A stretch of 64,000 bases of DNA from an uncultured Candidatus Saccharibacteria bacterium (GTDB lineage Bacteria > Patescibacteriota > Saccharimonadia > Saccharimonadales > UBA10212): assembly GCA_965231085.1 (NCBI GenBank), contig OZ246413.1, positions 155,991 through 219,990 of the forward strand. The letters run 5' to 3'. Below are positions 18,130-58,659 of the stretch, one piece after another. How positions within the stretch are numbered: position 1 is the first letter of the stretch; each line of letters opens with the position of its first letter. The position numbers and the translations under genes were made by a program. The notes under the pieces are model-generated. The model saw only the letters and a program-made list of their open reading frames with translations. It ran no database searches and had not been told where the DNA came from.

Positions 18130-18325
18130 CGATTTAATCAAATAGTAGAATAAATACTTAACTAGTTGAGTAATTTTAAGATATTAAAATACCCAGCACC
18201 AAAACTTGATATTACATAATCTGATTACAGACTACTTCATTCATGTTTTAGAGCTGGGCTAAGTCGCGGAGTGCAGCCAAGCGAGCAAGTTAATGCTACA
18301 AGCCTTTGCGGCGCACATGCCGCTG

Positions 18326-18356
18326 ACCGACGCGAACTCCACAGGTTCGCGTCGGT
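18326..18356. repeat. I1 hairpin family, copy 4 (12-bp stem accgacgcgaac/gttcgcgtcggt)
   Basis: Lies just downstream of I1-g and shares the CGACGCGA...TCGCGTCG core. Confidence 0.7.
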
Positions 18357-18372
18357 TGTTGATCATCTGGAA

Positions 18373-18486
18373 TCAGCGCTTCACGAAGTGACGCCTGGTT
18401 GCCCAGAGGTTGCACCACACGTCACTGCTGAGCTTGATCCCACCGAAGATGGCGATGAGAGCGAGCACACCATCCAGGTCTGACAT
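18373..18486 (-). CDS. I1-g micro-protein (37 aa; below the ORF-track cutoff)
   Basis: ATG 5 nt after GGGAGG. My translation is MSDLDGVLALIAIFGGIKLSSDVWCNLWATRRHFVKR. Confidence 0.5.
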   Translation of the reverse strand: MSDLDGVLALIAIFGGIKLSSDVWCNLWATRRHFVKR

Positions 18487-18508
18487 GTGATCCTCCCATT
18501 TGTTGTTT

Positions 18509-18544
18509 CGACGCGAGTTTCGAATGACCCCGCGTCGGGTGGAC
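18509..18544. repeat. I1 hairpin family, copy 3 (36-nt unit)
   Basis: Matches the 18763..18798 unit at 33 of 36 positions by hand alignment. Sits between I1-f and I1-g. Confidence 0.75.
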
Positions 18545-18553
18545 GAACTTGTC

Positions 18554-18721
18554 TCATCCCGGGGGGTTGAGGAAGTTGAGCCCCGAGAACGTGGCCACTG
18601 TCAGGGCCCCCAGCATCACGAAAAACATGAGCCGGGCCAACCATTTCCTCCTGACGGTTAGTCCGCGTAGGACGAGTCCGCAGAACAGGATGAACGTGAG
18701 TAGTGCGATGACTCCGCTCAT
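18554..18721 (-). CDS. I1-f small membrane protein (55 aa)
   Basis: Internal ATG (M44 of the 98-aa tracked ORF) preceded by aaggaag. Two hydrophobic segments. Confidence 0.55.
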   Translation of the reverse strand: MSGVIALLTFILFCGLVLRGLTVRRKWLARLMFFVMLGALTVATFSGLNFLNPPG

Positions 18722-18762
18722 GACACGGGCCTCTGCTTCCTTTCTTGGCCGAAGCCGGTTGC

Positions 18763-18798
18763 CGACGCGAGTTCCGGATGACCTCGCGTCGGGTGGAC
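18763..18798. repeat. I1 hairpin family, copy 2 (36-nt unit)
   Basis: Reads cgacgcgagttccggatgacctcgcgtcgggtggac, between I1-e and I1-f. Confidence 0.75.
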
Positions 18799-18806
18799 CG
18801 TGTGGT

Positions 18807-18944
18807 TCAGGTCTTCGATCTCGGTCGGGGCGGTCTTGGGCTGCTACCACGCGCGTGGATGAGGCAGACCCAAACCAAAGCCAAAGTCGCGATGACGATG
18901 GAGATGATGAGGGTGATGGTCAGGACTGCGAGGAGCACGCTCAT
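18807..18944 (-). CDS. I1-e micro-protein (45 aa; below the ORF-track cutoff)
   Basis: Its ATG overlaps the I1-d stop as ATGA. My translation is MSVLLAVLTITLIISIVIATLALVWVCLIHARGSSPRPPRPRSKT, i.e. one TM segment plus a Pro/Arg tail. Confidence 0.45.
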   Translation of the reverse strand: MSVLLAVLTITLIISIVIATLALVWVCLIHARGSSPRPPRPRSKT

Positions 18945-19096
18945 GACCCGTGCTTCTGCTTCTCCAGCTCGTCCTCCCTGAGAAGCTGGATGCCGGTGTA
19001 CAGCAGGCAGAGGAGAGCGACGATCACGAGCACGGCTTCACCGACTCCCCAGCCGACCTTGCTCCAGTTGATGCTGGCAACGATTAGCGTGTACAA
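18941..19096 (-). CDS. I1-d small membrane protein (about 51 aa; start uncertain)
   Basis: TTG at 19096 lies 4 nt after AAGGAG. The alternative ATG at 19132 sits inside a hairpin. One TM segment plus a charged tail (EDELEKQKHGS). Confidence 0.45.
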   Translation of the reverse strand: MYTLIVASINWSKVGWGVGEAVLVIVALLCLLYTGIQLLREDELEKQKHGS

Positions 19097-19116
19097 GGGG
19101 CTCCTTTCCGGTTCGC

Positions 19117-19134
19117 CGATGCGAACTCGCATCG
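19117..19134. repeat. I1 hairpin family, copy 1 (variant cgatgcg-aact-cgcatcg)
   Basis: 7-bp stem between I1-c and I1-d. Confidence 0.55.
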
Positions 19135-19151
19135 AGCGCTAGTGGATGCAG

Positions 19152-19382
19152 CTAGCCGTAGATGGTGCCGGCTGCGATGAGGGCCAGGAATTCTGCGAAG
19201 GCGGTGAGAACCGCGAAGAGCACGCCGGCACCATTTGCCGACGACTCATGCATCCCCGCCAGCCTAGCGACTCCGTAGGCGATGTACATCACTGCGAAGG
19301 GCAGAAGGCAGGCGCCCACCAGGATTCCGAAGAAAGCAAGGATCTTGGCGTCACCTCCCATGGCGATGAGCATTCCGAGCAT
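19152..19382 (-). CDS. I1-c small membrane protein (76 aa)
   Basis: ATG preceded by gaaagga. Two to three hydrophobic segments. Confidence 0.6.
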   Translation of the reverse strand: MLGMLIAMGGDAKILAFFGILVGACLLPFAVMYIAYGVARLAGMHESSANGAGVLFAVLTAFAEFLALIAAGTIYG

Positions 19383-19403
19383 CGGAGAGTTTCCTTTCTC
19401 GGC

Positions 19404-19610
19404 TTAGAGCCGCATGATGCCGTAGATGGCGCCGAACACGAACGCGGCGCAGATCAGAGCCAGGCACAGGGCGAACAGTCGTCCGAGCACTGTGCCTAGG
19501 TCTCCCTTGCAGTAGGCCCGGTACTCGAAGGTCTCGAACACCCTGTTGAGCGTAAGGCCCGTAAAGGCCAGGGCGACTAGGCCCAGAGCCACTTGAGCGA
19601 CATAGTTCAT
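19404..19610 (-). CDS. I1-b small membrane protein (68 aa)
   Basis: ATG 7 nt after GGGAGG, with two hydrophobic segments. Confidence 0.65.
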   Translation of the reverse strand: MNYVAQVALGLVALAFTGLTLNRVFETFEYRAYCKGDLGTVLGRLFALCLALICAAFVFGAIYGIMRL

Positions 19611-19622
19611 CGTATAGCCTCC

Positions 19623-19817
19623 CTACCAGGCGACGAAGGATGCGCCGACGAAGAAGCCTGTGATAACGACTCCTCCAACGACGAAGTAGATCTTCTTGCG
19701 GGTCTTGGCTACCGTCCACGTGGCCAATGTCGTGGCGAGCACGGACACACCGGCTGCTGCCCAAAGGGCTCCGGCTTTCTCAGTCACGTGGATCTGGCTT
19801 AGCAAGTAAGCAAACAC
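19623..19817 (-). CDS. I1-a small membrane protein (64 aa, 2 hydrophobic segments)
   Basis: GTG start 4 nt after GGAGG, GC3-rich codons, and its stop lies inside the SD of the next ORF. Confidence 0.6.
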   Translation of the reverse strand: MFAYLLSQIHVTEKAGALWAAAGVSVLATTLATWTVAKTRKKIYFVVGGVVITGFFVGASFVAW

Positions 19818-19883
19818 TTAACCTCCAGGTGAAGGTACGGGGACTAGCCCCGCACAAAGCGCAGGGCAAAATCCGATTAGCAG

Positions 19884-19912
19884 ATTATACAATCTTAACT
19901 TACTTTTATCAA
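19884..19912 (-). promoter_or_regulatory. Sigma70-like promoter for the I1 operon
   Basis: Minus strand reads TTGATA-N17-TATAAT. It is divergent from frr. Confidence 0.55.
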
Positions 19913-25961: not shown

Positions 25962-25978
25962 TCACTTTATGTTATTAT
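25950..25978 (+). promoter_or_regulatory. Sigma70-like promoter for cassette I2, overlapping the lysK stop
   Basis: Reads TTGAAA-N17-TATTAT. Confidence 0.45.
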
Positions 25979-26058
25979 ATCGCCCGACCTGGCAGTTTGG
26001 GTAATACCAAACAGTCCTGGTTGCACACACCGTTCACCAACACGGGAGGAACAGAGCA

Positions 26059-26496
26059 ATGCGTTCCAAGCTCGGCAATCTCGCCTTTCTCGCCACGCTG
26101 GTCCTGCTGGCCGTCATCACGGTCCGCGAGGTCCAGTACTGGACGAGGGCCGACTTCGTCGACCAGAAGTACGGGTACCCCGCGCCGAGGATCAACCTCG
26201 ACACGCTCTTCAGCTCCCACGTCGCCACGATCCTGACCTGGATCGCCGTGGTCGCGGCCTTCGCGTCGGCGTTCCTGCTGTTCGGGCGCGTCCGCGTCGG
26301 GCTGGTGGCGCTCGTCTGGCTCGGGCTGGGGCTGACCCTCGACGGTCACTTCTTCCACCCGGCCGAGGGGGCCGTCTGGATCGCCATCGTCGTCGTGACG
26401 GGCTGCGCGGTCCTGCTCCCGGTCATGATGCCCAGGCTGAGGCGCTTCGTGGTGTACGGCGGGCCTCACCGCCGCTACTACCGCCTCGAGTGGTAG
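26059..26496 (+). CDS. I2 membrane protein (145 aa, about 4 TM) with a G-H motif
   Basis: ATG 8 nt after GGGAGGA, GC3-rich codons, and DGHFFHPAEGAVWIAIV near TM4. Confidence 0.75.
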   Translation: MRSKLGNLAFLATLVLLAVITVREVQYWTRADFVDQKYGYPAPRINLDTLFSSHVATILTWIAVVAAFASAFLLFGRVRVGLVALVWLGLGLTLDGHFFHPAEGAVWIAIVVVTGCAVLLPVMMPRLRRFVVYGGPHRRYYRLEW

Positions 26497-26521
26497 CAGC
26501 CGTCAGCTTCACAGCTGGCAT

Positions 26522-26543
26522 GGGGGTCCCCTCGGGGACCCCC
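26522..26543 (+). terminator. GC-rich palindrome after the I2 ORF
   Basis: Reads gggggtcccc-tc-ggggaccccc. Confidence 0.65.
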
Positions 26544-26673
26544 GCTCACTTGATTGCTTAAATATATTTTGAGCCTTCAAGCGAGCTGATCAAAAATCAA
26601 AACATGTGGATAAATATTGTGTATTTGCAAAAACAGGAATACGATGAGATTACTACTAACTAAGGAGGGAAGT

Positions 26674-34318: not shown

Positions 34319-34347
34319 TTGACAATTCTAAGCATAAGTAGTATAAT
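34319..34347 (+). promoter_or_regulatory. Perfect-consensus sigma70 promoter upstream of cassette I3
   Basis: TTGACA (34319-34324), a 17-nt spacer, then TATAAT (34342-34347). Confidence 0.6.
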
Positions 34348-34512
34348 AGCGCGGTATTTTGGTTGAGGTGTTAAATACCTCCCAAAATCGCAATTTGACA
34401 GAGTAGATTAGATTTCATGAAGTGTTTACTGCTTATTGCTCGCCATATTTGGTGGGCGTTAAGCAGTAAATACACCTGTCCAAACACTACGCCTTAAGGA
34501 GGCGCTAGTTTC
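34348..34512 (+). promoter_or_regulatory. Structured leader of about 165 nt for the I3 gene
   Basis: Hairpin 34356-34388 (attttgg..gaggt / acctc..ccaaaat). Hairpin 34425-34470 (11-bp stem tttactgctta/taagcagtaaa). SD AAGGAGG at 34496-34502. Confidence 0.45.
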
Positions 34513-35124
34513 ATGTCCGACAACTGCAAGGTCATCGTCCTGCTCGGCGTCGGCCAGGACTCCCGCAACTTCTTCCGCGAGCTCAAGTTCTTCATGGGCC
34601 ACCGGACGATCCGCCTCATCGACATCGACGTCGCCAAGCTCGGCTCGGGCTGGTCGGAGGATCCGACCTCGCCTGCCATGACGAGCTACATCGACTCGAT
34701 GGTCTACCGGGCCGGCTACTCGCCGACGATGATCGAGTCCTACGGCCACGAGAGCGTCACCGACGTCGTCGTCGACGCCGGCTATCTCTCGGATCAGAAC
34801 GAGCCCGGCGTGTACACCATGCTGTGCACGATCTTCCCGAACGCCAAGATCCTCAAGGATGTCGGTGTCCACCGCACCGACCTCAAGCCGCCGATCTGGC
34901 ACGTCCCGATCGAGGAGCTCGAGATCGGCGTGCCGGCCTACAACAAGCTCAAGCGCGTCGGCATCGAGACCGTCGGCGACCTGATCAGCAAGTCGGCCGA
35001 GGAGCTCGAGGCCAAGAACCTCAAGCTCTCGCCGAAGATGCTCCTCGGCATCCGCGAGGCCCTCGCCAAGCACAAGCTGGCCCTCAAGGGCGAGCAGCCG
35101 TACATGCCCAACGACAAGGTCTAG
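34513..35124 (+). CDS. I3 protein: unknown N-terminal domain fused to an RNA polymerase alpha C-terminal-domain-like HhH module
   Basis: C-terminus PIEELEIGVPAYNKLKRVGIETVGDLISKSAEELEAKNLKLSPKMLLGIREALAKHKLAL is collinear with E. coli alpha-CTD ([26 protein letters not shown]...[20 protein letters not shown]). Codons are GC3-rich. Confidence 0.7.
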   Translation: MSDNCKVIVLLGVGQDSRNFFRELKFFMGHRTIRLIDIDVAKLGSGWSEDPTSPAMTSYIDSMVYRAGYSPTMIESYGHESVTDVVVDAGYLSDQNEPGVYTMLCTIFPNAKILKDVGVHRTDLKPPIWHVPIEELEIGVPAYNKLKRVGIETVGDLISKSAEELEAKNLKLSPKMLLGIREALAKHKLALKGEQPYMPNDKV

Positions 35125-35139
35125 CGCTTACGGGCAATG

Positions 35140-35175
35140 GGTGGTGGGGAACTCTGTAAAGAGAACCCCACCACC
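35140..35175 (+). terminator. GC-rich stem-loop after the I3 ORF
   Basis: Outer stem ggtggtgggg/ccccaccacc with inner ctct/agag. No clear U-tract. Confidence 0.5.
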
Positions 35176-35270
35176 ACACCCATCTACTCTGTCTCTCGAA
35201 CCTAGTTCTAAAGCATTTAGACCTGAGTTTGAGACAAAAAACGTAAGCATCATCTGGTATACTAAATACG

Positions 35271-48449: not shown

Positions 48450-48460
48450 TAAAGCCCGGA

Positions 48461-48492
48461 GGTGCAGGTCAGCCTCGCGGCTGGCCTGCACC
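48461..48492. terminator. Bidirectional GC-rich hairpin between recO and the I4 ORF
   Basis: Reads ggtgcaggtcagcc-tcgc-ggctggcctgcacc, with one mismatch. Confidence 0.6.
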
Positions 48493-48521
48493 CCTCGGGG
48501 ACGTCTACTTTGTGCGGCTTT

Positions 48522-49001
48522 TTAGGCCGCGGCTCCCCGGAGCTCTCGGGCGTCGAACGGAGCCACCACACCGACCAGCGTGATGAGCCGTGCCTCGAGG
48601 CTCTCGGCATCGTGCCTCAGCGGGTTCTTGTCGCCGAGGTTGATGAGTGCCTGCCGCGTGATGCGCAGTGCCCGACACAGGATCTCGCGCCGGTTGGCCT
48701 CGGGAGCGGTGTCGGCGGTCTCGATCAGGCAGGCCGCCCTCTGGGCCTGGGCTTCTGCTCTCAGCTCAGCCGACAGGTTGACGTTGAGGCTGGCGGCATG
48801 GAAGTACGGAGCCGCCTCAGCGAGCTTGCGCAGGCGCATGTAGTGCCTGCCGAGCTGTAGCTCGACCTTGCCGCGCTCGGCGGAGCCAGAGCGGGTTGCC
48901 TGATGCTCCAGCTGGAGCATCTCGAGGTCGTAGTCGACCCTTGAGATCTTGCCTTCCTTCAACTGGGCGCGCAATAGTCTGCGCCTTTGGTCTGGCTTCA
49001 T
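48522..49001 (-). CDS. I4 ORFan (159 aa, helical, Arg/Ala/Leu-rich)
   Basis: ATG at 49001 lies 5 nt after GGAGG (M28 of the tracked 186-aa ORF). Codons are GC3-rich. Confidence 0.6.
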   Translation of the reverse strand: MKPDQRRRLLRAQLKEGKISRVDYDLEMLQLEHQATRSGSAERGKVELQLGRHYMRLRKLAEAAPYFHAASLNVNLSAELRAEAQAQRAACLIETADTAPEANRREILCRALRITRQALINLGDKNPLRHDAESLEARLITLVGVVAPFDARELRGAAA

Positions 49002-49110
49002 CTGTTCCTCCACGCTCGGGGATTGCCGAAAGTAGTCGAAGAGCAAAATACCATATAACAGATTAAAATGCAAGACGGCCAATCTTCAAATCGGCTATAA
49101 TTTTAGGACA

Positions 49111-49749: not shown

Positions 49750-49761
49750 AACAAAAAAGAA

Positions 49762-49800
49762 CCGGGTAGGGCCAGCGCACTCGAGCGCCAGCCCTCCCGG
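49762..49800 (-). terminator. GC-rich compound hairpin downstream of the I5 ORF
   Basis: Outer stem ccggg(t)agggc/gccctcccgg with inner gcgc-actcga-gcgc. Confidence 0.5.
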
Positions 49801-49810
49801 GTAGTCCACT

Positions 49811-50401
49811 TCAGGCGGCGACCGTGTCGGCGGAAGCCGGCAGCAGCGCCTCGATCCTCGAGCGGTTCCTGCCGACCATCATCAGCAGGCCGGGGAACCT
49901 CTCGCCGAGATCGTCGAACGCGGCGTGGTTCGGACTGAGCAGGTCGTACGCCTTGCGCAGATGCCCGATGGCCCAGCGTTCGCTGCCCGCGAACTGGTGG
50001 TCCGTCCGCCTCGACAGGGCCTCGTGGACCCTGGACAGCGTGATGATCGACGTCGCCCAGGTTGGGTTGGGCAGGCCGCGCGACACGTCGCCGACGGCCT
50101 GAACCAGTTGCAGCTTGGCCTGGATGAGCCGAACCGTCGTGATGGCCCTCGGGTCGAAGATCTTGTCGCCCGCTGGGACCCAGCACTTGGCCTGGGTGGC
50201 CTGTACCATGCAGAGGTGCACAGCGTGGTTCGGCTTCTGCGTGTACTCGGCGAGCATCTTGCCGAACACGATTTCCGCTTCGCCGCGCGTCATGGTGTTC
50301 TGGCGCACGGCTACCAGGACTCGGTTCAGCTCCCGGTGCAAATCCTCGTAGGGGGTTATCACAACCGTTACCAACCTTTCGTCGGGGAACACGTCGTACA
50401 T
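49811..50401 (-). CDS. I5 ORFan (196 aa)
   Basis: This frame has a consistent GC3 bias. It contains an Rx4H string (ERWAIGH). No obvious SD. Confidence 0.6.
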   Translation of the reverse strand: MYDVFPDERLVTVVITPYEDLHRELNRVLVAVRQNTMTRGEAEIVFGKMLAEYTQKPNHAVHLCMVQATQAKCWVPAGDKIFDPRAITTVRLIQAKLQLVQAVGDVSRGLPNPTWATSIITLSRVHEALSRRTDHQFAGSERWAIGHLRKAYDLLSPNHAAFDDLGERFPGLLMMVGRNRSRIEALLPASADTVAA

Positions 50402-50487
50402 CCGAAGGTGGATGACAAATACGATATCATCATTTTACTGTTTACGCAATAATCTACCAGATGGGCTATATGATAAAATACGAGTTA

Positions 50488-52508: not shown

Positions 52509-53429
52509 AGTAAAAAAATCCTAGTTACCGATTCACTGTTTATATTTGATGAGCATATCAAGCAACTTGAAGCTGCAGGTTATGAAGTCGAACGTCTGGA
52601 TAAAGCGCGGGCTACAGAAGCCGAGCTCACTGAGGCAGTCAAAGATAAGGTTGGCTATATTTTGGGTGGCATCGAGCATGTCACCGATAAGGTTCTTGAG
52701 GCTGCCAGTGAACTAAAAGCCATTGCTTTTACGGGGGCTGACTATAAAGCTCTGATTCCTGGCTGGGAGTCTGCAGGAGAAAAGGGGATAGCCATTACTA
52801 CCACTCCTGGCGCTAATGCCACGGCAGTAGCCGAGTTCGCCATGGCGGCAGCATTAATCATGCAGCGCAACTTACTAGAACTCGGTCGAACCGGAAGCAA
52901 AAAATTTGAGACAGCCAAGAGTATGCAAAACTCTGTCATTGGGATAATTGGGGCAGGCAACATAGGCCTAAAACTGGCTGAGATGGTAAATACTTTCAGT
53001 CCGAGCGAGGTGATATATTTTAACCGATCAAAAAATGAAAAAATTGATGCAAAATATGTCGAGTTCGACGGACTACTGCAAACCGCGGACGTGATTTTCG
53101 TTGCTGTACCTGGTAGCGCCGGCCAGTTATTTAATGCTGAGAATCTCGCAAAAACCAAGAAGGGTGCACTAATAATCAGCATTTCACCAACTAATCTTTT
53201 TGATTTCGAGGCGCTCTTACCAAAATTACAAAACAACGAGTTGCGGGTGGCGATCGACTGGTCGGCTCCAAATGAAGAATTCGCAAAACTGCCTATGAAC
53301 GTCTGGTTCAACACTAATGACCATACTGGTTATAACACTTTTGTTGCCAATAAGATTGCCAGTGATATGGCAGTCGAGTCTTTGTTGAATGTTTTGAGAA
53401 CCGGCGAAGATAAATACAGGGTTGTCTAA
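52506..53429 (+). CDS. D-isomer-specific 2-hydroxyacid dehydrogenase family protein
   Basis: NAD-binding GIIGAGNIGLKLAE with a conserved C-terminal His region. Confidence 0.75.
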   Translation: MSKKILVTDSLFIFDEHIKQLEAAGYEVERLDKARATEAELTEAVKDKVGYILGGIEHVTDKVLEAASELKAIAFTGADYKALIPGWESAGEKGIAITTTPGANATAVAEFAMAAALIMQRNLLELGRTGSKKFETAKSMQNSVIGIIGAGNIGLKLAEMVNTFSPSEVIYFNRSKNEKIDAKYVEFDGLLQTADVIFVAVPGSAGQLFNAENLAKTKKGALIISISPTNLFDFEALLPKLQNNELRVAIDWSAPNEEFAKLPMNVWFNTNDHTGYNTFVANKIASDMAVESLLNVLRTGEDKYRVV

Positions 53430-53520
53430 CCGGAGTAAGTTAAACCAAACGGCTCTGTTCAAAACTTATAAAACATTGTAGAATATGCCTATTCCTGATG
53501 TAGACATCAAGGAGGTTCGC

Positions 53521-53988
53521 ATGACCGCCATAGAGGGCTATGTCCCTCGGCGAGTACGCCGCAGGGATGAGCGCCGCCACAAGAGCGCGGCTGCCCAGGC
53601 TGGCAGGAGCGAGAACCGGGCTGCCGAGGCCAGGCGGCTGGCAGAGATCGCGCAGCTGGAAGCGGATCTCACCAGCTACATCGAGATGCTGGGCAAGTCG
53701 CCCGACTGCGTCATCGAGATGGAGACCGGCAACCGCAACCTGACGGCTGGCACGCGTCTGCGCCACTGGCTGACCCCGGCCAGGCCCGGCCACAAGCTGC
53801 TGGTGCTGGAGTCGTCGTGCTTCGCCCTCAGCGAGCAGGGCAGGCTCTACCACGGCTACGTCAGCCACCAGCCGGCCATGGGGGCAGCGTTCGTCGCGAT
53901 CCACTCCTTCACGGAGTACGATCGCCAGTTCCCCAGCTACGCGGAGGCCGCTGCCCGCGCACTGAGGGGGCTGCTGCCCGAGCGCTAG
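53521..53988 (+). CDS. I6 ORFan (155 aa; basic N-terminus)
   Basis: ATG at 53521 lies 5 nt after AAGGAGG. The 53485 ATG abuts a -10-like TAGAAT and is unlikely to be used. Confidence 0.6.
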   Translation: MTAIEGYVPRRVRRRDERRHKSAAAQAGRSENRAAEARRLAEIAQLEADLTSYIEMLGKSPDCVIEMETGNRNLTAGTRLRHWLTPARPGHKLLVLESSCFALSEQGRLYHGYVSHQPAMGAAFVAIHSFTEYDRQFPSYAEAAARALRGLLPER

Positions 53989-54016
53989 CCGCCGCGGGAA
54001 GACACCTACAAGGGAT

Positions 54017-54054
54017 GAGGCGAGAGGCTTTTAGTGAGCTCTCGCCTCCGCGCC
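54017..54054 (+). repeat. Shared 38-nt hairpin module, copy A
   Basis: Reads gaggcgagag-gcttttagtgag-ctctcgcctc-cgcgcc. Matches 55959-55996 at 37 of 38 positions. Confidence 0.85.
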
Positions 54055-54078
54055 AGGGAACTCCACCTGGCGTCTTTT
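54051..54078 (+). terminator. Intrinsic terminator after I6
   Basis: Reads cgccagg-gaactcca-cctggcg, then tctttt. Confidence 0.7.
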
Positions 54079-54115: not shown

Positions 54116-54144
54116 TTGGCACAATAATGTTTTAGAAGTATAAT
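54116..54144 (+). promoter_or_regulatory. Sigma70-like promoter for cassette I7
   Basis: Reads TTGGCA-N17-TATAAT, followed by a leader of about 100 nt with a long-range stem (ggcaagaa.../...tttcttgcc). Confidence 0.5.
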
Positions 54145-54251
54145 ATTGGGCAAGAATTCTCGCTTAATGTAAATAGGCGAGGGTTTAGTCTTGGTGAGGA
54201 ATTTGCGCAATTTCTTGCCAGGTTCACAAGCGATCGAAAGCGAGGACGCAC

Positions 54252-55367
54252 ATGAAGTTCCCCTCGAAGCACGCCTGGCTGCTGCTGGCCGTGGTGGCCG
54301 CCCTGGTGGCCAGCGTCGCGTCGGCCTCGGCCAACACGAACAACTCGCTCGGCAACAAGGCCGACGGGTCGCTCAAGGCCGCCTGGATCTACGTCGGCCC
54401 ACACAACGACGGTGGCTGGTCGCAGGCCCACGACATGGGCCGGCTCTACGTGCAGAAGATGCTCGGCAACAAGGTGCAGACGACCTACAAGGAGAACGTC
54501 CCCGAGGGGCCGCAGGTCGCGCAGGTGATCGAGTCGCTCATCCGCGACGGCAACAAGATCATCTTCGCCACCTCGTTCGGCTTCCAGAACGCCATGGCCA
54601 CCGCCGCCAAGAAGCACCCCGACGTCAAGTTCGAGATGGCGACGGGCACCACCTACGGCGGCAACATGTCCGAGTACTTCGGCGCGGGGGAGGACGCGAT
54701 CTACCTGTCCGGCATGGCCGCCGGAGCCGCCACCAAGAGCGGCGTCATCGGCTACATCGTGCCGTTCCCGATCCCGGAGGTCATCCGCCACGCCAACGCG
54801 TTCGCGCTCGGCGCCCAGGCGATGAACCCGAAGGTCAAGGTCAAGCTCGTGTGGACGCTGTCGTGGTTCGCGCCCGACAAGGAGAAGAAGGCCGCCGAGA
54901 GCCTCAAGGCCGCCGGCGCGGACGTGATCGGCCAGAACGTCGACAGCCCCGCCGCCGGCCAGTACGCCGAGAGCGCCGGGCTGTCGTGGGTTGGCTACGA
55001 CTCCGACGCCTCGCAGTTCGCGCCGAAGCAGTGGCTCACCGCCGCCGTCTACAACTGGGGTCCGTACTACGCGAGCCGGGTCAAGGCCGTGATGAACGGC
55101 ACCTGGAAGGCCGGCTTCTACTACGGCAGCATCAAGGACGGCTTCGTGGACATCGCCAAGTTCGGGCCGAGCGTCTCGGCCGCGACCAAGGCAGCGATCG
55201 CCGCGAAGCGCAAGGCGCTGATCGCCGGCACGTTCTACGAGTTCGCCGGCCCGATCACCGACCAGTCCGGCAAGGTGCGAGTCGCGGCCGGCAAGAAGCT
55301 CGGTCTCAACGACCTGTACATGATCGACTGGCTCGTCAAGGGCATCGACGGCAGCCCGAAGGGCTGA
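54252..55367 (+). CDS. BMP-family (PnrA/Med-like) ABC-transporter substrate-binding protein; orphan
   Basis: Signal peptide ending ASA with no lipobox Cys. BMP-like blocks: AAWIYVGPHNDGGWSQAH, IIFATSFGF, GVIGYIVPFPIPEV and GADVIGQNVDS. Confidence 0.8.
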   Translation: MKFPSKHAWLLLAVVAALVASVASASANTNNSLGNKADGSLKAAWIYVGPHNDGGWSQAHDMGRLYVQKMLGNKVQTTYKENVPEGPQVAQVIESLIRDGNKIIFATSFGFQNAMATAAKKHPDVKFEMATGTTYGGNMSEYFGAGEDAIYLSGMAAGAATKSGVIGYIVPFPIPEVIRHANAFALGAQAMNPKVKVKLVWTLSWFAPDKEKKAAESLKAAGADVIGQNVDSPAAGQYAESAGLSWVGYDSDASQFAPKQWLTAAVYNWGPYYASRVKAVMNGTWKAGFYYGSIKDGFVDIAKFGPSVSAATKAAIAAKRKALIAGTFYEFAGPITDQSGKVRVAAGKKLGLNDLYMIDWLVKGIDGSPKG

Positions 55368-55400
55368 CTGCTCGGTCTACCGACGACCATGGTTCACCTC

Positions 55401-55436
55401 GAGGGGGCGTCCGTCCGCGCAAGCGGACGCCCCCTC
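55401..55436 (+). terminator. 13-bp GC-rich hairpin after the I7 ORF
   Basis: Reads gagggggcgtccg-N10-cggacgccccctc. Confidence 0.7.
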
Positions 55437-55538
55437 ACACTTTATAAATAGACGCCTACCAGGGCATATGCAAAAACACTAAAAAATTATATAATCCAAA
55501 AATCCTGATACATCAACAGTGTTTGGAGGTCTTACGGT

Positions 55539-55946
55539 ATGAGGCGAATGATACCGCCCACTCATGCACAGCTATGCGAGGCTGCCGAGGCCGCGCGGGC
55601 AGCTCGGATCACGTACGAGAATGCCATGAGCGATCTGCACAACTACGCAGCGCCGCTCGCGCACAGGTGGGTGAAGCTGACGGCTGCAGAGAGGAACGTG
55701 ATGGACCCGGTCGTCTTCGTGCAGCGCCGTCACAAGGGCGGGGAGTGGAGCTCCAAGGCCAGACTCGGCTACTTCACGCTGCCGGCCAGTGCCGATGGGA
55801 GCACCACGGCCATGGTCTCGGAGGTCGTCGTCGAGACGTACGGCCTGATCAGGCTGGTGCTGATCATCCCGGGCCAATCCGATGAGTTCCAGGTCAATGC
55901 CGAGCAGTTCAAGATCGAGGTGCTCGAGCACCTGACGAGCTCGTGA
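55539..55946 (+). CDS. I8 ORFan (135 aa)
   Basis: ATG 9 nt after GGAGG. Codons are GC3-rich. Confidence 0.6.
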   Translation: MRRMIPPTHAQLCEAAEAARAARITYENAMSDLHNYAAPLAHRWVKLTAAERNVMDPVVFVQRRHKGGEWSSKARLGYFTLPASADGSTTAMVSEVVVETYGLIRLVLIIPGQSDEFQVNAEQFKIEVLEHLTSS

Positions 55947-55958
55947 TGTACGACAGGC

Positions 55959-55996
55959 GAGGCGAGAGGCTTTTAGCGAGCTCTCGCCTCCGCGCC
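55959..55996 (+). repeat. Shared 38-nt hairpin module, copy B
   Basis: Reads gaggcgagag-gcttttagcgag-ctctcgcctc-cgcgcc. Confidence 0.85.
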
Positions 55997-56015
55997 GGGA
56001 GTAATCCCGGCTTTT
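55994..56015 (+). terminator. Intrinsic terminator after I8
   Basis: Reads gccggga-gtaa-tcccggc, then tttt. Confidence 0.7.
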
Positions 56016-56039: not shown

Positions 56040-56660
56040 ATGAAACTGACTAGATATTACCAGAGCTGTCTAATTGTTGAAGAAGATGGTGTCCGGCTGT
56101 TAATAGACGCTAGCGTCCAGGAGATCGAGAGGATTGAGCAATTTGGCCATATTGACGCAGTGCTTTTTACTCACGAACATTCAGATCATTTTAGCTCCGA
56201 GCTTGCTGAAAAGTATCGCCAAATTGGTGTTCCAATTTATGCTAACGATAGTACTGCTAAAAATATGATCAGCCCGCCAAATATTATGGTCAGTGGCCAG
56301 GAATTTGAGGTGAAGGGTGTAAAAATTAAGCCAATAGATTTACCGCACTGTCTGTTGTTCGACGGCCGTAGCGGACCTCAGAATACAGCTTTGCTTATAA
56401 ATAACAAGTTTCTGGATTCGGGCGATAGCGTGGAAATAACTAGCCTAACGGCGGAGATTGCTGCTATCCCAATGGTTGGGCCGGATGTATCTTTTAAAGA
56501 TTCGATTGCCTACGCTAAAAGTCTGCAAGCTAAAGTCATAGTGCCTCTGCACTATGACTATCTAGGGGGTAATCCCGAAGTTTTTTCTGAAGTTCTGGCT
56601 AGGGTTAATTCTGGGCAGCAGGTGCGTCCGCTTCAATTGGGCGAGACGGTGCAACTGTAG
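56040..56660 (+). CDS. Metallo-beta-lactamase-fold hydrolase
   Basis: HxHxDH motif (HEHSDH). 206 aa. Confidence 0.75.
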   Translation: MKLTRYYQSCLIVEEDGVRLLIDASVQEIERIEQFGHIDAVLFTHEHSDHFSSELAEKYRQIGVPIYANDSTAKNMISPPNIMVSGQEFEVKGVKIKPIDLPHCLLFDGRSGPQNTALLINNKFLDSGDSVEITSLTAEIAAIPMVGPDVSFKDSIAYAKSLQAKVIVPLHYDYLGGNPEVFSEVLARVNSGQQVRPLQLGETVQL

Positions 56661-57318
56661 GACGGTGCTCTATAGCGCCTAGAATGTCCTGAAACTGAAA
56701 CCAGGGGCCAAGTTTTATTAAATCTAAGATCGCTGTTTTAAAAGCCTCGGTAGTTGGCCGCAGCCCCTCGTTTGCTACTAGCCCATTCATAAACTGACTG
56801 TCCCAAACCGCTTCTTGCATTTGCTGAATCATAGGCGCTGGTTTACCCATAACTTGGCCGACGGCGGGTAGCTGGGTTAGATCTGCAGGAACAGCCTTTT
56901 TGCCAAAGGCTCTCGTGATACTAAATCTACCAACTTTGCGTTGTGGTTCTAGAACGCTTTCGCGCTCAGCCTTGTCTTGGCGGGCAATTTCAAGAGCACG
57001 GTTCATATCCGCAATTAGTCTTTCAACAGTTGCTCGGATCAAACTTATTCCACCATCAGGGGCTTTTTGAGCCTCTTGGGCTAGAATGGTAGCTAACTTA
57101 GAAAAAGTTAAGCTAATCATGGCTTCAGCAGCGTCAACATAGGAGTCTTGTTTACTATGATCACCTGCTGCAAAATTCGCTAGATAAACTGCTAGTATCC
57201 CATAAGTTTCACTAATTAGCTCCTCCGGCGAGGGGGATCTTTCGGCGGTGGGTATATGTAAATTAATGTCTGGTTTCATATCTGGGGCAACTATAGTTAT
57301 AGAAGTTTGATTCGTCAA
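56605..57318 (-). CDS. Hypothetical protein (237 aa; start uncertain)
   Basis: Backbone-like composition. Its 3' end overlaps the convergent MBL gene by 56 nt. Confidence 0.5.
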   Translation of the reverse strand: MTNQTSITIVAPDMKPDINLHIPTAERSPSPEELISETYGILAVYLANFAAGDHSKQDSYVDAAEAMISLTFSKLATILAQEAQKAPDGGISLIRATVERLIADMNRALEIARQDKAERESVLEPQRKVGRFSITRAFGKKAVPADLTQLPAVGQVMGKPAPMIQQMQEAVWDSQFMNGLVANEGLRPTTEAFKTAILDLIKLGPWFQFQDILGAIEHRPTVAPSRPIEADAPAAQN

Positions 57319-57338
57319 GACTCGCTAGAAGGGTCTCG

Positions 57339-57377
57339 CCAAAACCAACTACTAAAAAAGTAATTACCTTTGGTGAG
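57339..57377. repeat. Flank repeat, copy A (ends in TAATTACCTTTGGTGAG)
   Basis: Imperfect direct repeat of about 40 nt matching 58073-58114. The terminal 17-mers match at 16 of 17 positions. Confidence 0.75.
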
Positions 57378-57379
57378 AC

Positions 57380-57416
57380 GGGCGACGCACACGGGTACTT
57401 CCCGCATACGTCGCCC
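57380..57416 (-). terminator. GC-rich hairpin downstream of the I9 ORF
   Basis: Outer stem gggcgacg...cgtcgccc with an inner acggg/cccg pairing. Confidence 0.5.
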
Positions 57417-57443
57417 TGGTTGCGCTTTTTAAGGGCCGCGCAA

Positions 57444-57956
57444 CTAGCCCGCCTTGCGCCGAGGCTCGGCGAAGGGAATCCCGGCGCTCATGATCCCCTC
57501 GTTGAAGAGCTGGAGGTCGTAGGTCACCACGGCTGCCTCCGGCTTCTCGGCCGTCTCGTCCGAGCTGGTGATCGGCTTGACCTTGGCCGCCTGGCGGTCG
57601 ATGTCCAGCGCGATGAGGCACAGGACGACGCCGCAGATCCCCAGCACCCAGAGGTAGTCGAGAGGGTTGGGCAGGGCGTGCCCGGCCATCAGACCGACCG
57701 ACAGCGTGATGACGCCGCTGCCGATGAGCGTCGCCTCGTCCTTCTGGATGTAGGCGATGGCGATCAGCATCAGGAACGCGAACATCAGCAGGTAGGCGAG
57801 AGCTCTGGCCCAGTCGGGCCCGAGATCGCCGTTCCACCAGCCGAGGTTCTTGGCACCGAGCTTGGTGGCGCCGCTGCACAGCAGGCAGACGATCAGCGCC
57901 AGGTTGGAGAACATCAGGCCGTACTTCACGTCGTTGGCGGTGACGCGAAGATGCAC
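57444..57956 (-). CDS. I9 membrane protein (170 aa, about 4 TM + acidic tail) with a G-H motif
   Basis: GTG at 57956 lies 7 nt after AGAGGAGG. Contains AGHALPNPLDYLWVLGI. Confidence 0.65.
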   Translation of the reverse strand: MHLRVTANDVKYGLMFSNLALIVCLLCSGATKLGAKNLGWWNGDLGPDWARALAYLLMFAFLMLIAIAYIQKDEATLIGSGVITLSVGLMAGHALPNPLDYLWVLGICGVVLCLIALDIDRQAAKVKPITSSDETAEKPEAAVVTYDLQLFNEGIMSAGIPFAEPRRKAG

Positions 57957-58017
57957 TTCAAGACCTCCTCTTGGGAGAGTTCTTGTACCACCGCAGAACT
58001 TCAGTGGATTGATATAG

Positions 58018-58046
58018 ATTATACAATTTAAAGCCTTATTTAGCAA
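58018..58046 (-). promoter_or_regulatory. Sigma70-like promoter for I9
   Basis: Minus strand reads TTGCTA-N17-TATAAT, with leader box TCAATCCACTG 5 nt downstream. Confidence 0.55.
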
Positions 58047-58072
58047 TAAGACGTAAAGAAGAGCTACTCTTA

Positions 58073-58114
58073 CCAAAACCTACTAACTTCTAAGGGTTAA
58101 TAACCTTTGGTGAG
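58073..58114. repeat. Flank repeat, copy B (ends in TAATAACCTTTGGTGAG)
   Basis: See copy A. Confidence 0.75.
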
Positions 58115-58147
58115 GAGCAGACACGCATATCATATGCGTGTCTGCTC
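58115..58147 (-). terminator. 16-bp perfect palindrome downstream of the I10 ORF
   Basis: Reads gagcagacacgcatat-c-atatgcgtgtctgctc. Confidence 0.6.
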
Positions 58148-58192
58148 GGGGGTGGGCGGGGAACGTGGGCCAGCATCACTCAGCGTTGGATG

Positions 58193-58597
58193 CTAGCGCG
58201 ACTTGGGGTGGCCGTCGTCGATGTTCCACCGGTACGTGGCCGTGAGGAAGTAGACCACCGCGTAGGCCACCAGGATCCACTTGCCGCTCTCGAACATCCC
58301 CGACGGGATGGAGTGGCCGAACAGCAGCATCACGATCGCGATGGCCAGGCCGCTGAGGCAGACCACGACGGGCTTCTTGATGAAGTAGCCGATGACCGAC
58401 GCGACGGCGACGGAGCAGACCACCAGCCAGCCGAACAGGTCGGTGGTGGCCGAGCTGAGGCCGACGGTCAGCGGGCCCGGGTCGCTGTTGATCATGATGG
58501 CGTTGTCGGCGGCGTAGTGCGCGCCGATCAGCAGCAGCGCCAGGATCGAGCCGAAGGCGTACAGGCCGTACATCAGGTGCTGCAGGCGGATGTTCAT
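58193..58597 (-). CDS. I10 membrane protein (134 aa, about 4 TM) with a G-H motif
   Basis: ATG at 58597 lies downstream of GGGAGG. Contains FGHSIPSGMFESGKWILV and is collinear with the I9 protein. Confidence 0.65.
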   Translation of the reverse strand: MNIRLQHLMYGLYAFGSILALLLIGAHYAADNAIMINSDPGPLTVGLSSATTDLFGWLVVCSVAVASVIGYFIKKPVVVCLSGLAIAIVMLLFGHSIPSGMFESGKWILVAYAVVYFLTATYRWNIDDGHPKSR

Positions 58598-58659
58598 TTG
58601 TGAATCGACCTCCCTGGGTCGTTGCGCCGCCAAGCGGGATTGCCAGCGGATTGAGAGGT

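Follow-up and report, generated by a model that had tools for sequence, protein, structure and literature searches.

Ten high-GC expression units resembling phage morons between the housekeeping genes of a Saccharibacteria chromosome

Introduction

How do ten sharply bounded high-GC segments come to lie between intact housekeeping genes of a mid-GC chromosome, and are they all recent arrivals? The window, the whole 64-kb stretch of DNA analysed here, is part of a Saccharibacteria (TM7) chromosome, as a first, sequence-only reading had supposed; the organism is environmental, with soil as its probable source. Horizontal transfer has been used to guess the hosts of Patescibacteria, and the functions acquired in this way include components of ABC transporters (PMC12455944; PMC8386444; PMC11659515). 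In an aquifer survey, transfers occurred mostly between Patescibacteria, a single counted event had an Actinomycetota donor and recent transfers from other phyla were rare (PMC12455944).

Results

Two-state GC segmentation of the 64-kb window returned ten high-GC segments (I1 to I10), neither more nor fewer, with limits within about 50-100 nt of those first read from the letters. They total 7,086 bp or 11% of the window, close to the initial estimate of about 7.4 kb or 12%, and range from 60 to 68% GC against a backbone of 0.44, with AT-rich spacers of 0.35-0.39. The compositional steps, which the sequence-only reading had proposed to verify, are present in the computed GC segmentation and in the GC3 of the ORFs. 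One ORF was found per segment, except for seven tandem ORFs in I1. GC3-rich coding sequence had been predicted, and the island ORFs indeed reach 0.72-1.00 in comparison to 0.43 +/- 0.03 in the backbone; the distribution is bimodal, without a real gene between the two values. The islands fill intergenic gaps, again as first read: no backbone gene is interrupted and the flanking genes (frr, class-I lysS, prfB, ftsE, recO, an HD-domain gene and glyQS) are intact on both sides. The features of the islands, each with its segmentation limits (seg.) and GC content, are:

I1: 18252..19912, minus strand; 1.5-kb high-GC block (0.60) of seven small membrane-peptide ORFs (19623-19817, 19404-19610, 19152-19382, 18941-19132, 18807-18944, 18554-18721, 18373-18486; GC3 0.72-0.80), most preceded by an SD; promoter TTGATA-N17-TATAAT, 19884-19912; internal hairpin repeats (repeat families D2, D11), 18509-18544 and 18763-18798; terminal hairpin near 18327-18356; seg. 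18308-19775, GC 0.60
I2: 25972..26545, plus strand; ORF 26059-26496, 145 aa, GC3 0.97, R>>K, predicted by eye as a multi-pass membrane protein; TTGAAA-N17-TATTAT-like promoter (by eye); GGAGG SD; double GC hairpin, 26502-26543; seg. 26016-26545, GC 0.68
I3: 34319..35193, plus strand; ORF 34513-35124, 203 aa, GC3 0.97; seg. 34536-35149, GC 0.64
I4: 48454..49082, minus strand; ORF 48522-49001, 159 aa, R-rich, GC3 0.82, probably helical from by-eye reading; GGAGG SD; GC hairpin, about 48455-48499; in the gap between recO and the HD-domain gene; seg. 48454-49028, GC 0.66
I5: 49757..50405, minus strand; orphan ORF 49811-50401 (or start at 50392), 193-196 aa, GC3 0.89; sole island without an SD; hairpin followed by a T-run, about 49762-49800; in the gap between the HD-domain gene and glyQS; seg. 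49762-50355, GC 0.67
I6: 53505..54073, plus strand; orphan ORF 53521-53988, 155 aa, R-rich, GC3 0.88; SD AAGGAGG within 53505-53520; double 3' hairpin with an element of repeat family D4, 54017-54057; seg. 53511-54072, GC 0.68
I7: 54116..55437, plus strand; ORF 54252-55367, 371 aa, GC3 0.98; promoter TTGGCA-N17-TATAAT, 54116-54144, followed by an AT-rich leader of about 100 nt; GC hairpin, about 55401-55436; seg. 54240-55434, GC 0.67
I8: 55539..56012, plus strand; orphan ORF 55539-55946, 135 aa, GC3 0.84; GGAGG SD; 3' double hairpin, 55957-56011; seg. 55554-56011, GC 0.64
I9: 57361..58046, minus strand; ORF 57444-57956, 170 aa, GC3 0.94, predicted by eye as a multi-pass membrane protein; SD GGAGG; promoter TTGCTA-N17-TATAAT, 58018-58046; GC hairpin, about 57380-57416; AT-rich 3' element CTCACCAAAGGTAATTA, 57361-57377; seg. 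57372-57947, GC 0.66
I10: 58098..58688, minus strand; ORF 58193-58597, 134 aa, GC3 1.00, predicted by eye as a multi-pass membrane protein (the public gene call sits on the wrong strand); SD GGAGG; promoter TTGCTT-N17-TATAAT, 58660-58688; GC hairpin, about 58115-58147; AT-rich 3' element CTCACCAAAGGTTATTA, 58098-58114; seg. 58136-58649, GC 0.66

Each segment is a stand-alone expression unit in which an AT-rich promoter is followed by a leader with a GGAGG-type SD, a GC3-high ORF and a very stable GC hairpin. These elements had been noticed by eye and withstood counting. The motif TTG-N20-TATAAT occurs six times in the window (0.85 expected; none of 100 shuffles reached six), and five of the six sites lie in correct orientation upstream of I1, I3, I7, I9 and I10, in agreement with the TTGnnn-N17-TATAAT promoters claimed for at least five islands. 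Of the 14 island ORFs, 12 have a GGAGG-type SD in front of them, versus 2 of 31 backbone ORFs. The stem-loops announced for the islands were recovered at all ten 3' ends, with folding energies between -30 and -42 kcal/mol (z-scores -3.1 to -5.3). The proteins of I2, I4, I5, I6 and I8 have an amino acid make-up of the high-GC type (R>>K, GARP 0.30-0.39). Those of I3, I9 and I10 combine a backbone-like make-up (K>=R, FYMINK 0.24-0.29) with the most extreme GC3.

I7 encodes a BMP/PnrA-like ABC substrate-binding protein without transporter partners. It shares 86-88% nucleotide identity with bmp genes on actinobacterial-type contigs of 69-72% GC, and the identity ends at the stop codon. In the donor-type loci the gene order is CMD, phosphoribosyltransferase, Bmp, ABC ATPase and permeases, a hairpin also follows bmp, and the named relatives are Gaiellaceae. 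The lineage-specific synonymous changes of I7 are swaps between C and G rather than GC to AT. The high identity and the absent amelioration thus indicate a recent transfer, and on these nucleotide comparisons I7 demonstrably derives from a high-GC, Gaiellales-like actinobacterial lineage.

The history of I3 is a different one. Its protein combines a novel N-terminal domain with an RNA polymerase alpha-CTD-like domain (PF03118), for which the closest matches are the RpoA C-termini of GARP-rich proteins (55-58% identity). Only one full-length homolog was present among 1.84 billion representatives. Besides the ORF and its SD (AAGGAGG), the cassette contains the following elements:

34319-34347, plus strand: promoter TTGACA-N17-TATAAT
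34397-34408: left inverted repeat GACAGAGTAGAT
about 34422-34473: 23-bp leader hairpin
about 35138-35175: GC hairpin
35182-35193: right inverted repeat ATCTACTCTGTC

An I3 ortholog with the same boundaries occupies the same site between prfB and ftsE in the distant relative L170; such same-locus conservation had been named in advance as evidence against the sequence-only reading. The two proteins share 42% amino acid identity, the intergenic flanks are 84-88% identical, and the GC3 of the ORF is 0.97 in the window and 0.88 in L170. Estimated from 33 prfB codons and the I3 ORF, synonymous sites are saturated between the two genomes, with a third-position identity of 33% in prfB and a same-codon fraction of 0.68 (0.70 expected at saturation). 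A rough neutral-amelioration calculation gave an expected I3 GC3 of about 0.77 or lower versus the 0.88-0.97 seen. The third member, L171, lies at another locus adjoining a tRNA-Leu gene. Its GC3 is 0.72, compared to 0.41-0.48 for the neighbouring genes, and the inverted repeat, leader hairpin and SD of the family are all present. Across the family the leader hairpin covaries with eight compensatory pairs, and the perfect 12-bp inverted repeat is significant, family-specific and conserved in the three genomes. All members reside on mid-GC, CPR-like contigs, with a GC3 0.25-0.5 above that of their neighbours; relatives of I3 on high-GC contigs were not found. From these sequence comparisons, I3 is not a recent capture.

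In the homologous loci of 160 other Saccharibacteria (about 2.4 Mb), high-GC island-like sequence accounts for less than 0.5%. In the synteny comparison the islands are absent from the loci of these relatives, and the I3 ortholog lies at its site in L170. RecO directly adjoins glyQS in 101 of 150 loci of relatives; the filled gaps contain unrelated genes, several of them with the layout of promoter, SD, GC3-high ORF and hairpin. By its behaviour across relatives, the recO-glyQS gap appears to be an insertion hot spot.

Donors were not detected for eight of the ten islands. The orphan islands had no homolog in phage, viral-contig or family libraries; in particular, I1 had no match in the phage collections searched, I2 none in Pfam, PHROG, NCBIfam or PADLOC, and the viral-contig scan was negative for I4. 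The orphan status of I2, I4-I6 and I8-I10 seems less well supported than that of I3. The proposal that genes of actinobacterial hosts were captured is partly supported: I7 comes from an actinobacterial lineage that may be the host's, but a donor is lacking for the eight islands and I3 is not a recent capture. I6 and I8 share at their 3' ends a 41-nt element (54017-54057 and 55959-55999; 95% identical), while their ORFs have no detectable mutual similarity. I10 is likely a distant paralog of I9. The flanking elements common to I9/I10 and to I6/I8 point to duplication inside the recipient genome.

Discussion

We consider the ten segments to be moron-like accessory cassettes with horizontally acquired cores, not all of them recent, and a foreign dialect maintained in the recipient, at a rough probability of 0.5. 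The coding core would be written in a high-GC, actinobacterial-type style: codons end in G or C, the ribosome-binding site is GGAGG and the terminator hairpin is GC-rich. The surrounding AT-rich DNA would supply a near-consensus sigma-70 promoter to each. The cores may have been acquired horizontally, with high-GC bacteria or mobile elements of such bacteria as the source; this entry is demonstrated for I7 and suggested for the I1 block and the R-rich orphans I2, I4, I5, I6 and I8. Natural competence, which Saccharibacteria possess (PMC10633639), together with illegitimate recombination and deletional trimming to one gene, is a conceivable route of uptake. The I3 family would have spread among Saccharibacteria by descent or by transfer and taken its regulatory shell along.

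The alternative initially preferred, that all ten islands are recent, independent captures of actinobacterial host genes behind pre-existing promoters and had no time to ameliorate, is unlikely. I7 fits it fully, and the bimodal GC3 without intermediate backbone genes and the absence of the islands from the loci of relatives agree with it. High-GC Actinobacteria as a rule have strong SD motifs and GC hairpins, and in the donor-type contigs hairpins were seen after bmp. However, the saturated same-site ortholog of I3 keeps a GC3 above the neutral expectation, the implied duplications took place within the recipient, and eight islands have no donor. Capture behind resident promoters fails for I3 in particular: its AT-rich promoter, leader with inverted repeat, and 3' shell recur in three genomes and at two different loci, and a shell that is family-specific and conserved in this way is not a resident promoter.

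Quite unlikely is an origin of all cores except I7 as native, fast-evolving Saccharibacterial genes whose synonymous sites were driven to G/C in place, by gene-specific codon or mRNA selection or by GC-biased conversion at loci where natural transformation causes heavy recombination. An effect of such conversion on GC3 has been proposed for bacteria (PMC4450053), and I3 resembles that hypothesis in its sharp boundaries, a GC3 near 1.0 and a protein divergence accelerated relative to the conserved flanks. The confinement of the I3 family to mid-GC contigs and its saturated yet G/C-ending synonymous sites also speak for it, and the backbone-like composition of I3, I9 and I10 combined with extreme GC3 would fit native genes as well. 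A local run-up of GC3 of this kind is exemplified by the mouse Fxy gene at the pseudoautosomal boundary. In contrast, I7, inside the densest cluster, is unquestionably foreign and was not driven in place, and the proteins of I2, I4, I5, I6 and I8 are of the high-GC type. The SD and hairpin style of the islands is absent from the backbone, and a purely synonymous drive would not create it. To our knowledge, reported bacterial conversion effects amount to a few percent, compared to a rise from 0.43 to 1.0 here.

A dedicated system that mobilises units of ORF plus hairpin and inserts them between genes, either integron-like or a small transposon with inverted-repeat ends, is very unlikely. The perfect repeats bracketing I3 in three genomes, once beside a tRNA gene, and the imperfect hairpin behind the dissimilar I6 and I8 ORFs, reminiscent of integron attC, are suggestive. 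Of the flanking inverted repeats tested at the islands, however, only those of I3 were significant, and they are not element ends since the similarity within the I3 family runs past them. The cassettes are dispersed rather than arrayed, and the promoter regions are alike at the consensus level only. The cassette-type insertion mechanism offered by the sequence-only reading finds no backing: target-site duplications and a recombination site common to the islands were not found, and no integrase or transposase was seen among about 20 ORFs in or beside them.

Soil metagenomes are rich in high-GC Actinobacteria, and the sequences closest to I7 occur frequently in such data, but mis-joining of actinobacterial reads into the Saccharibacteria contig, or bin contamination, is a negligible explanation: the junctions have the same assembly in four sequencing runs, they recur in contigs of SRR14271365, SRR14271372 and SRR14271366 and on a 669-kb NCBI contig carrying island proteins, the Logan loci match the window at 100% identity, the independent contig L088 spans both I2 junctions, all 20 junctions are intergenic with matched promoters and terminators, and the I3-family mosaic reappears in unrelated sequencing projects.

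Phage morons, a concept of Hendrix and colleagues, are units of promoter, gene and terminator inserted among the genes of a prophage, and their base composition is usually deviant. The architecture of the islands appears to resemble them most: single genes with their own sigma-70-type promoter and factor-independent terminator, wedged between adjacent undisrupted genes, with a GC content sharply off their neighbours and accessory or unassigned functions. Unlike morons, they lie among housekeeping genes on a cellular chromosome instead of in a prophage, give no phage matches, differ from the backbone in translation initiation (SD versus no SD) and, in at least one case, are retained between divergent genomes. 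With integron cassettes they share compactness, mostly single and often orphan ORFs, an imperfect inverted repeat at the end, atypical codon usage and, in I6 and I8, a near-identical 3' hairpin behind unlike genes. But integron cassettes are promoterless and arrayed beside intI and attI, and the islands have their own promoters, lie scattered among core genes and lack a common core site and a visible integrase. Foreign genes in reduced episymbiont genomes are also known from published transfers into Saccharibacteria and other Patescibacteria (PMC12455944; PMC8386444; PMC11659515), although, in contrast to the aquifer survey (PMC12455944), uniform single-gene high-GC units make up 11% of the 64-kb window here. 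We found no published account of GC3-extreme cassettes at such a density, nor of their persistence.

With its own promoter, SD and terminator in an intergenic spot that tolerates insertions, a cassette would depend on its housekeeping neighbours for neither transcription nor translation. As the I3 dialect was kept at the same site through long divergence, the islands are not all recent arrivals. The I3 family retains G/C-ending codons and its SD after full synonymous turnover, which suggests that a foreign dialect is maintained in the recipient; codon or mRNA selection, GC-biased conversion and repeated renewal out of a high-GC pool are candidate causes.

Composition and authenticity of the islands

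A 300-nt composition profile and a two-state GC segmentation both resolved ten sharply bounded segments (islands I1 to I10) of 0.60-0.68 GC in a backbone of 0.44 GC, with the spacers between adjacent segments falling to 0.35-0.39. These are the ten GC-rich segments claimed in a sequence-only reading of the window, recovered with limits within about 50-100 nt of those proposed there, and they sum to 7,086 bp or 11% of the window. Apart from I1, every segment has one ORF coded in the manner of high-GC organisms (GC1 > GC2, GC3 0.80-1.00); I1 has seven ORFs for small membrane peptides, in tandem on the minus strand (GC3 0.72-0.80). The computed profile has the compositional step that the reading had called for: third-codon-position GC (GC3) is bimodal, with 0.72-1.00 across all ten islands versus 0.43 +/- 0.03 in backbone genes and no genuine intermediates. 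All ten islands depart in base composition and codon usage from the recipient norm, as is expected of horizontally acquired genes. The proteins of I2, I4, I5, I6 and I8 are R-rich and GARP-rich, as in high-GC organisms. Those of I3, I9 and I10 are backbone-like (K>=R) despite the most extreme GC3, and the Bmp protein of the lineage related to I7 is likewise K-rich. AT skew in the island intervals, read on the plus strand and not on the gene sense strand, was inconsistent in sign.

The I7 gene (bmp, encoding a BMP binding protein) and a backbone dehydrogenase gene are co-located on 100-kb and 77-kb Logan contigs (SRR14271365 and SRR14271372) as well as on a 669-kb NCBI contig. In a further run, SRR14271366, short contigs cross both ends of I2 and the 3' end of I3. 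The Logan loci fetched match the window with 100% identity. Because identical junctions were obtained from independent runs, a chimeric assembly is very unlikely and was rejected.

Expression architecture

The islands share predicted expression signals; promoters, leaders and terminators are described here as predictions from the sequence. The pattern TTG-N20-TATAAT occurs six times in the 64 kb, versus 0.85 occurrences expected and none of 100 shuffles reaching six. Five of the six sites lie just 5' of I1, I3, I7, I9 and I10 in the correct orientation, in agreement with the promoters anticipated at five or more islands; weaker look-alikes were read by eye at I2, I6 and I8. A GGAGG-type ribosome-binding site (SD) at proper spacing precedes 12 of the 14 island ORFs, bearing out the strong SD of the sequence-only reading, versus any SD-like tetramer at 2 of 31 backbone ORFs even with alternative start codons allowed. 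The GC-rich stem-loops proposed to follow the ORFs fold at all ten 3' ends (-30 to -42 kcal/mol, z-scores -3.1 to -5.3).

Backbone starts are either A-rich or lie 7-12 nt after a TATAAT, which suggests leaderless mRNAs. Examples of backbone genes with a TATAAT-like box 7-12 nt before the ATG are:

49111, 56040, 57279 minus strand

Thus islands and backbone differ in three independent ways, namely the composition of their codons, the way translation starts and the type of terminator. A mobile promoter module common to the islands was rejected, since the upstream regions of the islands are alike around the -10 element only.

In the backbone, the 17-mer AGTAAAATAAAACCATG recurs at three consecutive gene junctions, where it spans a stop codon and the ATG of the gene that follows (genes of 125, 86 and 307 aa). 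It has the look of a sequence used repeatedly, without an SD, for coupling or initiation.

51840-51859, first junction
52227-52246, second junction
52492-52511, third junction

Insertion sites and relatives

By its GlyRS the backbone belongs to Saccharibacteria, and the closest GlyRS among genomes and metagenome contigs is only 75-77% identical at the protein level; empty-site comparisons are limited to relatives at about 77% GlyRS identity or less. As had been claimed, the islands are all intergenic and their neighbouring genes intact. They lie between a hypothetical gene and frr, class-I lysS and a small ORF, prfB and ftsE, recO and an HD-domain gene, and this HD-domain gene and glyQS; the remaining islands occupy a variable stretch from a 2-hydroxyacid dehydrogenase gene to an NYN-domain gene.

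Same-site comparison covered I3, I4/I5 and I9/I10, and the I6-I8 interval was judged by the absence of homologues. Relatives with 60-77% GlyRS identity have nothing, or something else, at the sites of I4/I5 and I9/I10. At the site of I3, contig L170 has an orthologue. Homologues of the island proteins were not found in the loci of GTDB relatives. Three further genes near the islands were recorded, the first two being absent from the relatives examined, so that accessory genes of either composition occur at these hot spots:

49111-49749, HD-domain gene between I4 and I5, backbone-like GC
56605-57279, minus strand, 224-aa gene before I9, backbone-like GC
27138-27908, PD-(D/E)XK/Cas4-like nuclease gene about 600 nt 3' of I2

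In 101 of 150 loci recO directly adjoins glyQS (gap under 300 nt), and the filled gaps of different Saccharibacteria have contents without detectable mutual homology. Across the phylum this junction is a hot spot for insertions. Four of the fillings are minus-strand genes with GC3 raised 0.2-0.4 above their own backbone and with the layout of the islands, i.e. a consensus -10 element, a leader, an SD and a GC hairpin:

L027 8688-9898
L031 9202-9888
L050 9490-9906
L120 8742-9824

The phenomenon therefore exists in other environmental Saccharibacteria, although the window is far denser in such cassettes: in about 2.4 Mb from other Saccharibacteria (160 homologous loci) the same segmentation returned only some 25 small segments of high GC, which make up less than 0.5%.

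Two sets of segments in these loci are described separately. In four MAG loci of Saccharibacteria a segment with 0.63 GC, about 500 nt long, lies at the same position. No convincing ORF was found in the two checked (L057 and L070), nor an Rfam match in L057, and the segment may be an undescribed structured RNA. In three further loci a conserved 245-aa ORF, read in L142 and L162, has GC3 0.72 against a background of 0.54-0.58; it is apparently the counterpart of the window gene at 46626-47369, upstream of the response regulator.

L057 6482-6918, 0.63-GC segment
L070 6483-6982, 0.63-GC segment
L077 6496-6989, 0.63-GC segment
L080 6498-7028, 0.63-GC segment
L137 8022-8504, raised GC3
L142 7900-8637, raised GC3, 245-aa ORF
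L162 7024-7761, raised GC3, 245-aa ORF

Origin of I7

The 371-aa protein of I7 matches PF02608 (E = 3.6e-46, 158 bits versus a gathering cut-off of 24.1), which places it among the BMP/PnrA-like ABC substrate-binding proteins. Its relatives number in the thousands, with identities of 85-88% for the best, and those with a name belong to Gaiellaceae (Thermoleophilia, Actinomycetota). Contigs with close relatives have 69-72% GC and a native gene context of CMD, phosphoribosyltransferase and Bmp; in one of them (L086) an ABC ATPase and two permeases follow 3' of Bmp. The cognate ATPase and permeases are absent from the window, where the gene is solitary, flanked by I6 and I8. Nucleotide identity of 86-88% runs from codon 40 to the stop codon and ends there; a GC hairpin is also found 3' of bmp in the donor loci. 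Third-position changes unique to the I7 branch comprise 23 C<->G swaps versus 5 GC->AT changes, a spectrum that matches that of the actinobacterial branches, and therefore essentially all of the divergence accrued in a high-GC genome. I7 is the only island whose closest relatives were found in another lineage with matching composition and a native operon context, and on this evidence it is a recent import from a high-GC actinobacterial lineage. The proposed capture from Actinobacteria thus holds for I7, with its Gaiellaceae-type relatives; it does not extend to I3, whose relatives all lie on mid-GC contigs, and for the other eight islands no donor was found.

The I3 family

The I3 protein, encoded between prfB and ftsE, matches PF03118 over residues 127-169 (37.2 bits versus a cut-off of 23.8) and scores far below the cut-offs for full-length rpoA, so it contains an RNA polymerase alpha C-terminal domain and is not RpoA. 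Among 1.84 billion cluster representatives it has a single full-length homologue, P0144 (42% identity). The remaining matches are confined to the alpha-CTD-like domain, the best being RpoA C-termini of GARP-rich proteins (55-58% identity). A metagenome scan with I3 returned nothing, and a single-sequence AlphaFold model (mean pLDDT 52) was unusable.

P0144 is encoded on L170, a 1,075-nt contig of SRR22388336 that represents the same locus in another Saccharibacterium and reads in order prfB end, promoter, leader, GC-rich ORF, GC hairpin, AT-rich spacer and ftsE start. Same-locus conservation, which the sequence-only reading had set against its own proposal of capture, is thus found for I3.

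Identity between L170 and the window along the I3 locus
Upstream intergenic DNA: 84%
Leader: 67%
ORF, N-terminal part: 54% nt, 34% aa
ORF, C-terminal part: 73% nt, 53% aa
3' hairpin: 57%
Downstream spacer: 88%
First 29 nt of ftsE: 100%

Over the last 33 codons of prfB the two proteins are 88% identical and the third positions 33%, and conserved residues of the I3 ORF use the same codon in 68% of cases versus 70% expected at full saturation; synonymous sites have therefore fully turned over. Despite this turnover the window keeps a GC3 of 0.97 and L170 one of 0.88, a comparison drawn from one 1-kb contig, with about 0.77 or lower expected under neutral amelioration by our own rough estimate from few codons. 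A more distant member, P0158, occurs on L171 and L172 (JGI samples) at another locus, directly after tRNA-Leu(CAA), and has GC3 0.72 versus 0.41-0.48 in its neighbours. Together these comparisons indicate that I3 is not a recent capture and that the GC-rich style is a lasting property of its family.

The three I3 members also have a regulatory shell in common. An invariant TTTGACAGAGTAGA lies upstream and its reverse complement downstream; in the window the two give an inverted repeat that is perfect over 12 bp, and no shuffle gave one that long. In all three genomes the gene is bracketed by the repeat GACAGAGTAGA / TCTACTCTGTC, perfectly conserved over 11-12 bp.

34397-34408 and 35182-35193, window, perfect 12-bp inverted repeat
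183-193 and 959-969, L170, 11-12-bp inverted repeat round the I3-family gene
2527-2537 and 3647-3657, L171, 11-12-bp inverted repeat round the I3-family gene

The motif was not found elsewhere in the window or in the other fetched loci, except for L089, a same-strain contig overlapping I3. Further parts of the shell are an AAGGAG(G) SD, an AT-rich hairpin on the 3' side and a 23-bp leader hairpin; in this leader hairpin double changes preserve 8 pairs, with only three sequences compared. Neither the inverted repeat nor the leader hairpin has an Rfam match; the repeat could serve 5'-3' mRNA pairing or form a pair of protein-binding sites. Since the shell is conserved across three members, the AT-rich flanks are part of the cassette family rather than resident promoters that it has borrowed, which contradicts, for I3, the idea of capture behind such promoters.

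Other islands

The ORFs of I6 and I8 have no detectable similarity; behind each lies a 41-nt hairpin element, and the two copies are 95% identical. The adjacent I9 and I10 encode proteins that are weakly similar (protein BLAST E about 0.1-0.3) and, by eye, multi-pass membrane proteins. Common to both are the motifs YGL, GDxGP and GHxxP, the leader motif ATCAATCCRCTG and the AT-rich 3' element CTCACCAAAGGTWATTA, which occurs only twice in the window. These shared motifs and flanking elements are suggestive of a duplication that included the AT-rich flanks and was followed by strong divergence of the ORFs at GC3 0.94-1.00.

Seven islands count as orphans on the basis of family-library, phage and viral searches. 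A donor was found for one island only, and relatives of eight (all but I3 and I7) were not found, which is a weak test.

Within I10 the public gene call is a 137-aa plus-strand ORF, which the minus-strand ORF overlaps:

58190-58603, plus strand (L001 9939-10352), publicly called ORF
58193-58597, minus strand, ORF with GC3 1.00, SD, promoter and membrane-protein character

Judged by these features, the public call is on the wrong strand. High GC3 opens long antisense frames and thereby misleads gene callers trained on the backbone.

Class and origin of the cassettes

With their own promoter (as predicted) and terminator round a single ORF between two genes, the islands resemble phage morons. 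Unlike these, they do not lie in a prophage or phage genome: their neighbours are frr, lysS, prfB, ftsE, recO and glyQS. Their best single description is that of moron-like accessory expression cassettes, with cores written in a high-GC, SD-led style.

An insertion mechanism of cassette type, as the sequence-only reading had offered, is unsupported: target-site duplications, an integrase among the scanned ORFs and inverted repeats outside I3 were not found. An integron-like origin would require attC sites with a conserved core, arrayed beside intI and attI; the islands differ from such cassettes in being dispersed and in having 3' hairpins that are unrelated except for I6/I8. Flanking direct repeats did not exceed chance. 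An IS- or MITE-type element was rejected for want of target-site duplications and because homology in the I3 family, the only one with an inverted repeat, continues outside that repeat; flanking inverted repeats are accordingly no general island feature. A prophage or actinophage origin was rejected on negative searches: I1 had no blastn match in phage collections, no island protein had a tblastn match in 50,697 phage records, none of the ten island proteins scanned matched a PHROG, and viral-contig scans for I3, I4, I5, I6, I8 and I10 were all negative. A diversity-generating retroelement was dismissed because no template/variable repeat pair matches an island ORF, no RT was present among the scanned ORFs and the plus-strand AT skew gives no consistent sign of adenine mutagenesis, defence-system proteins because PADLOC was negative for the island proteins; no known RNA family was found in the window.

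Transfer from high-GC bacteria, which is documented for I7, is the most economical source of the R-rich orphans and of the I1 block. Uptake via natural competence followed by trimming to one gene would be a plausible route, natural competence being documented for Saccharibacteria (PMC10633639). In Patescibacteria horizontal transfer has been reported mostly within the phylum, and transfers from Actinomycetota and recent cross-phylum events have been called rare (PMC12455944). For oral lineages, host guesses based on horizontal transfer have been published (PMC8386444; PMC11659515). The literature on horizontal transfer in Saccharibacteria and Patescibacteria yielded no description of a dense, uniform cassette pattern or of its persistence.

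As the I3 family shows, some cassettes at least are long-lived and heritable, or mobile within Saccharibacteria, with their dialect retained. Codon or mRNA selection, GC-biased conversion or re-supply from a high-GC pool could keep it; conversion, a hypothesis put forward for bacteria (PMC4450053), could act in a highly recombining, fast-diverging gene. A broader reading is that Saccharibacteria may have a standing gene compartment whose dialect is that of their high-GC hosts (codons saturated with G/C, a strong SD where the genome at large uses none, and GC hairpin terminators), with conserved AT-rich regulatory shells and actively maintained over the long term, hence a functional heritable class and not transient debris of horizontal transfer. 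We consider this tentative and rather improbable as it stands (roughly 0.3). Maintenance of the dialect would then come from selection linked to the host-attached lifestyle, from continual conversion by host DNA that has been ingested, or from GC-biased conversion acting locally.

Significance

In practical terms, composition-based binning or decontamination could wrongly discard the islands, and gene callers trained on the backbone mis-call their genes, as with the strand of I10. The foreign-style expression cassettes form a clean, dense and reproducible set. I7 gives a traceable donor lineage (Gaiellales-like), so that a host can be proposed, and the proposal tested, for an uncultured lineage from soil. 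Of greater weight than this donor is the I3 family, for its extreme GC3 and SD persist past synonymous saturation in a mid-GC genome otherwise without SD, which standard amelioration theory does not predict. Population data would allow a direct test of the forces that act on codons and GC content where a genome is reduced and its bearer naturally competent.
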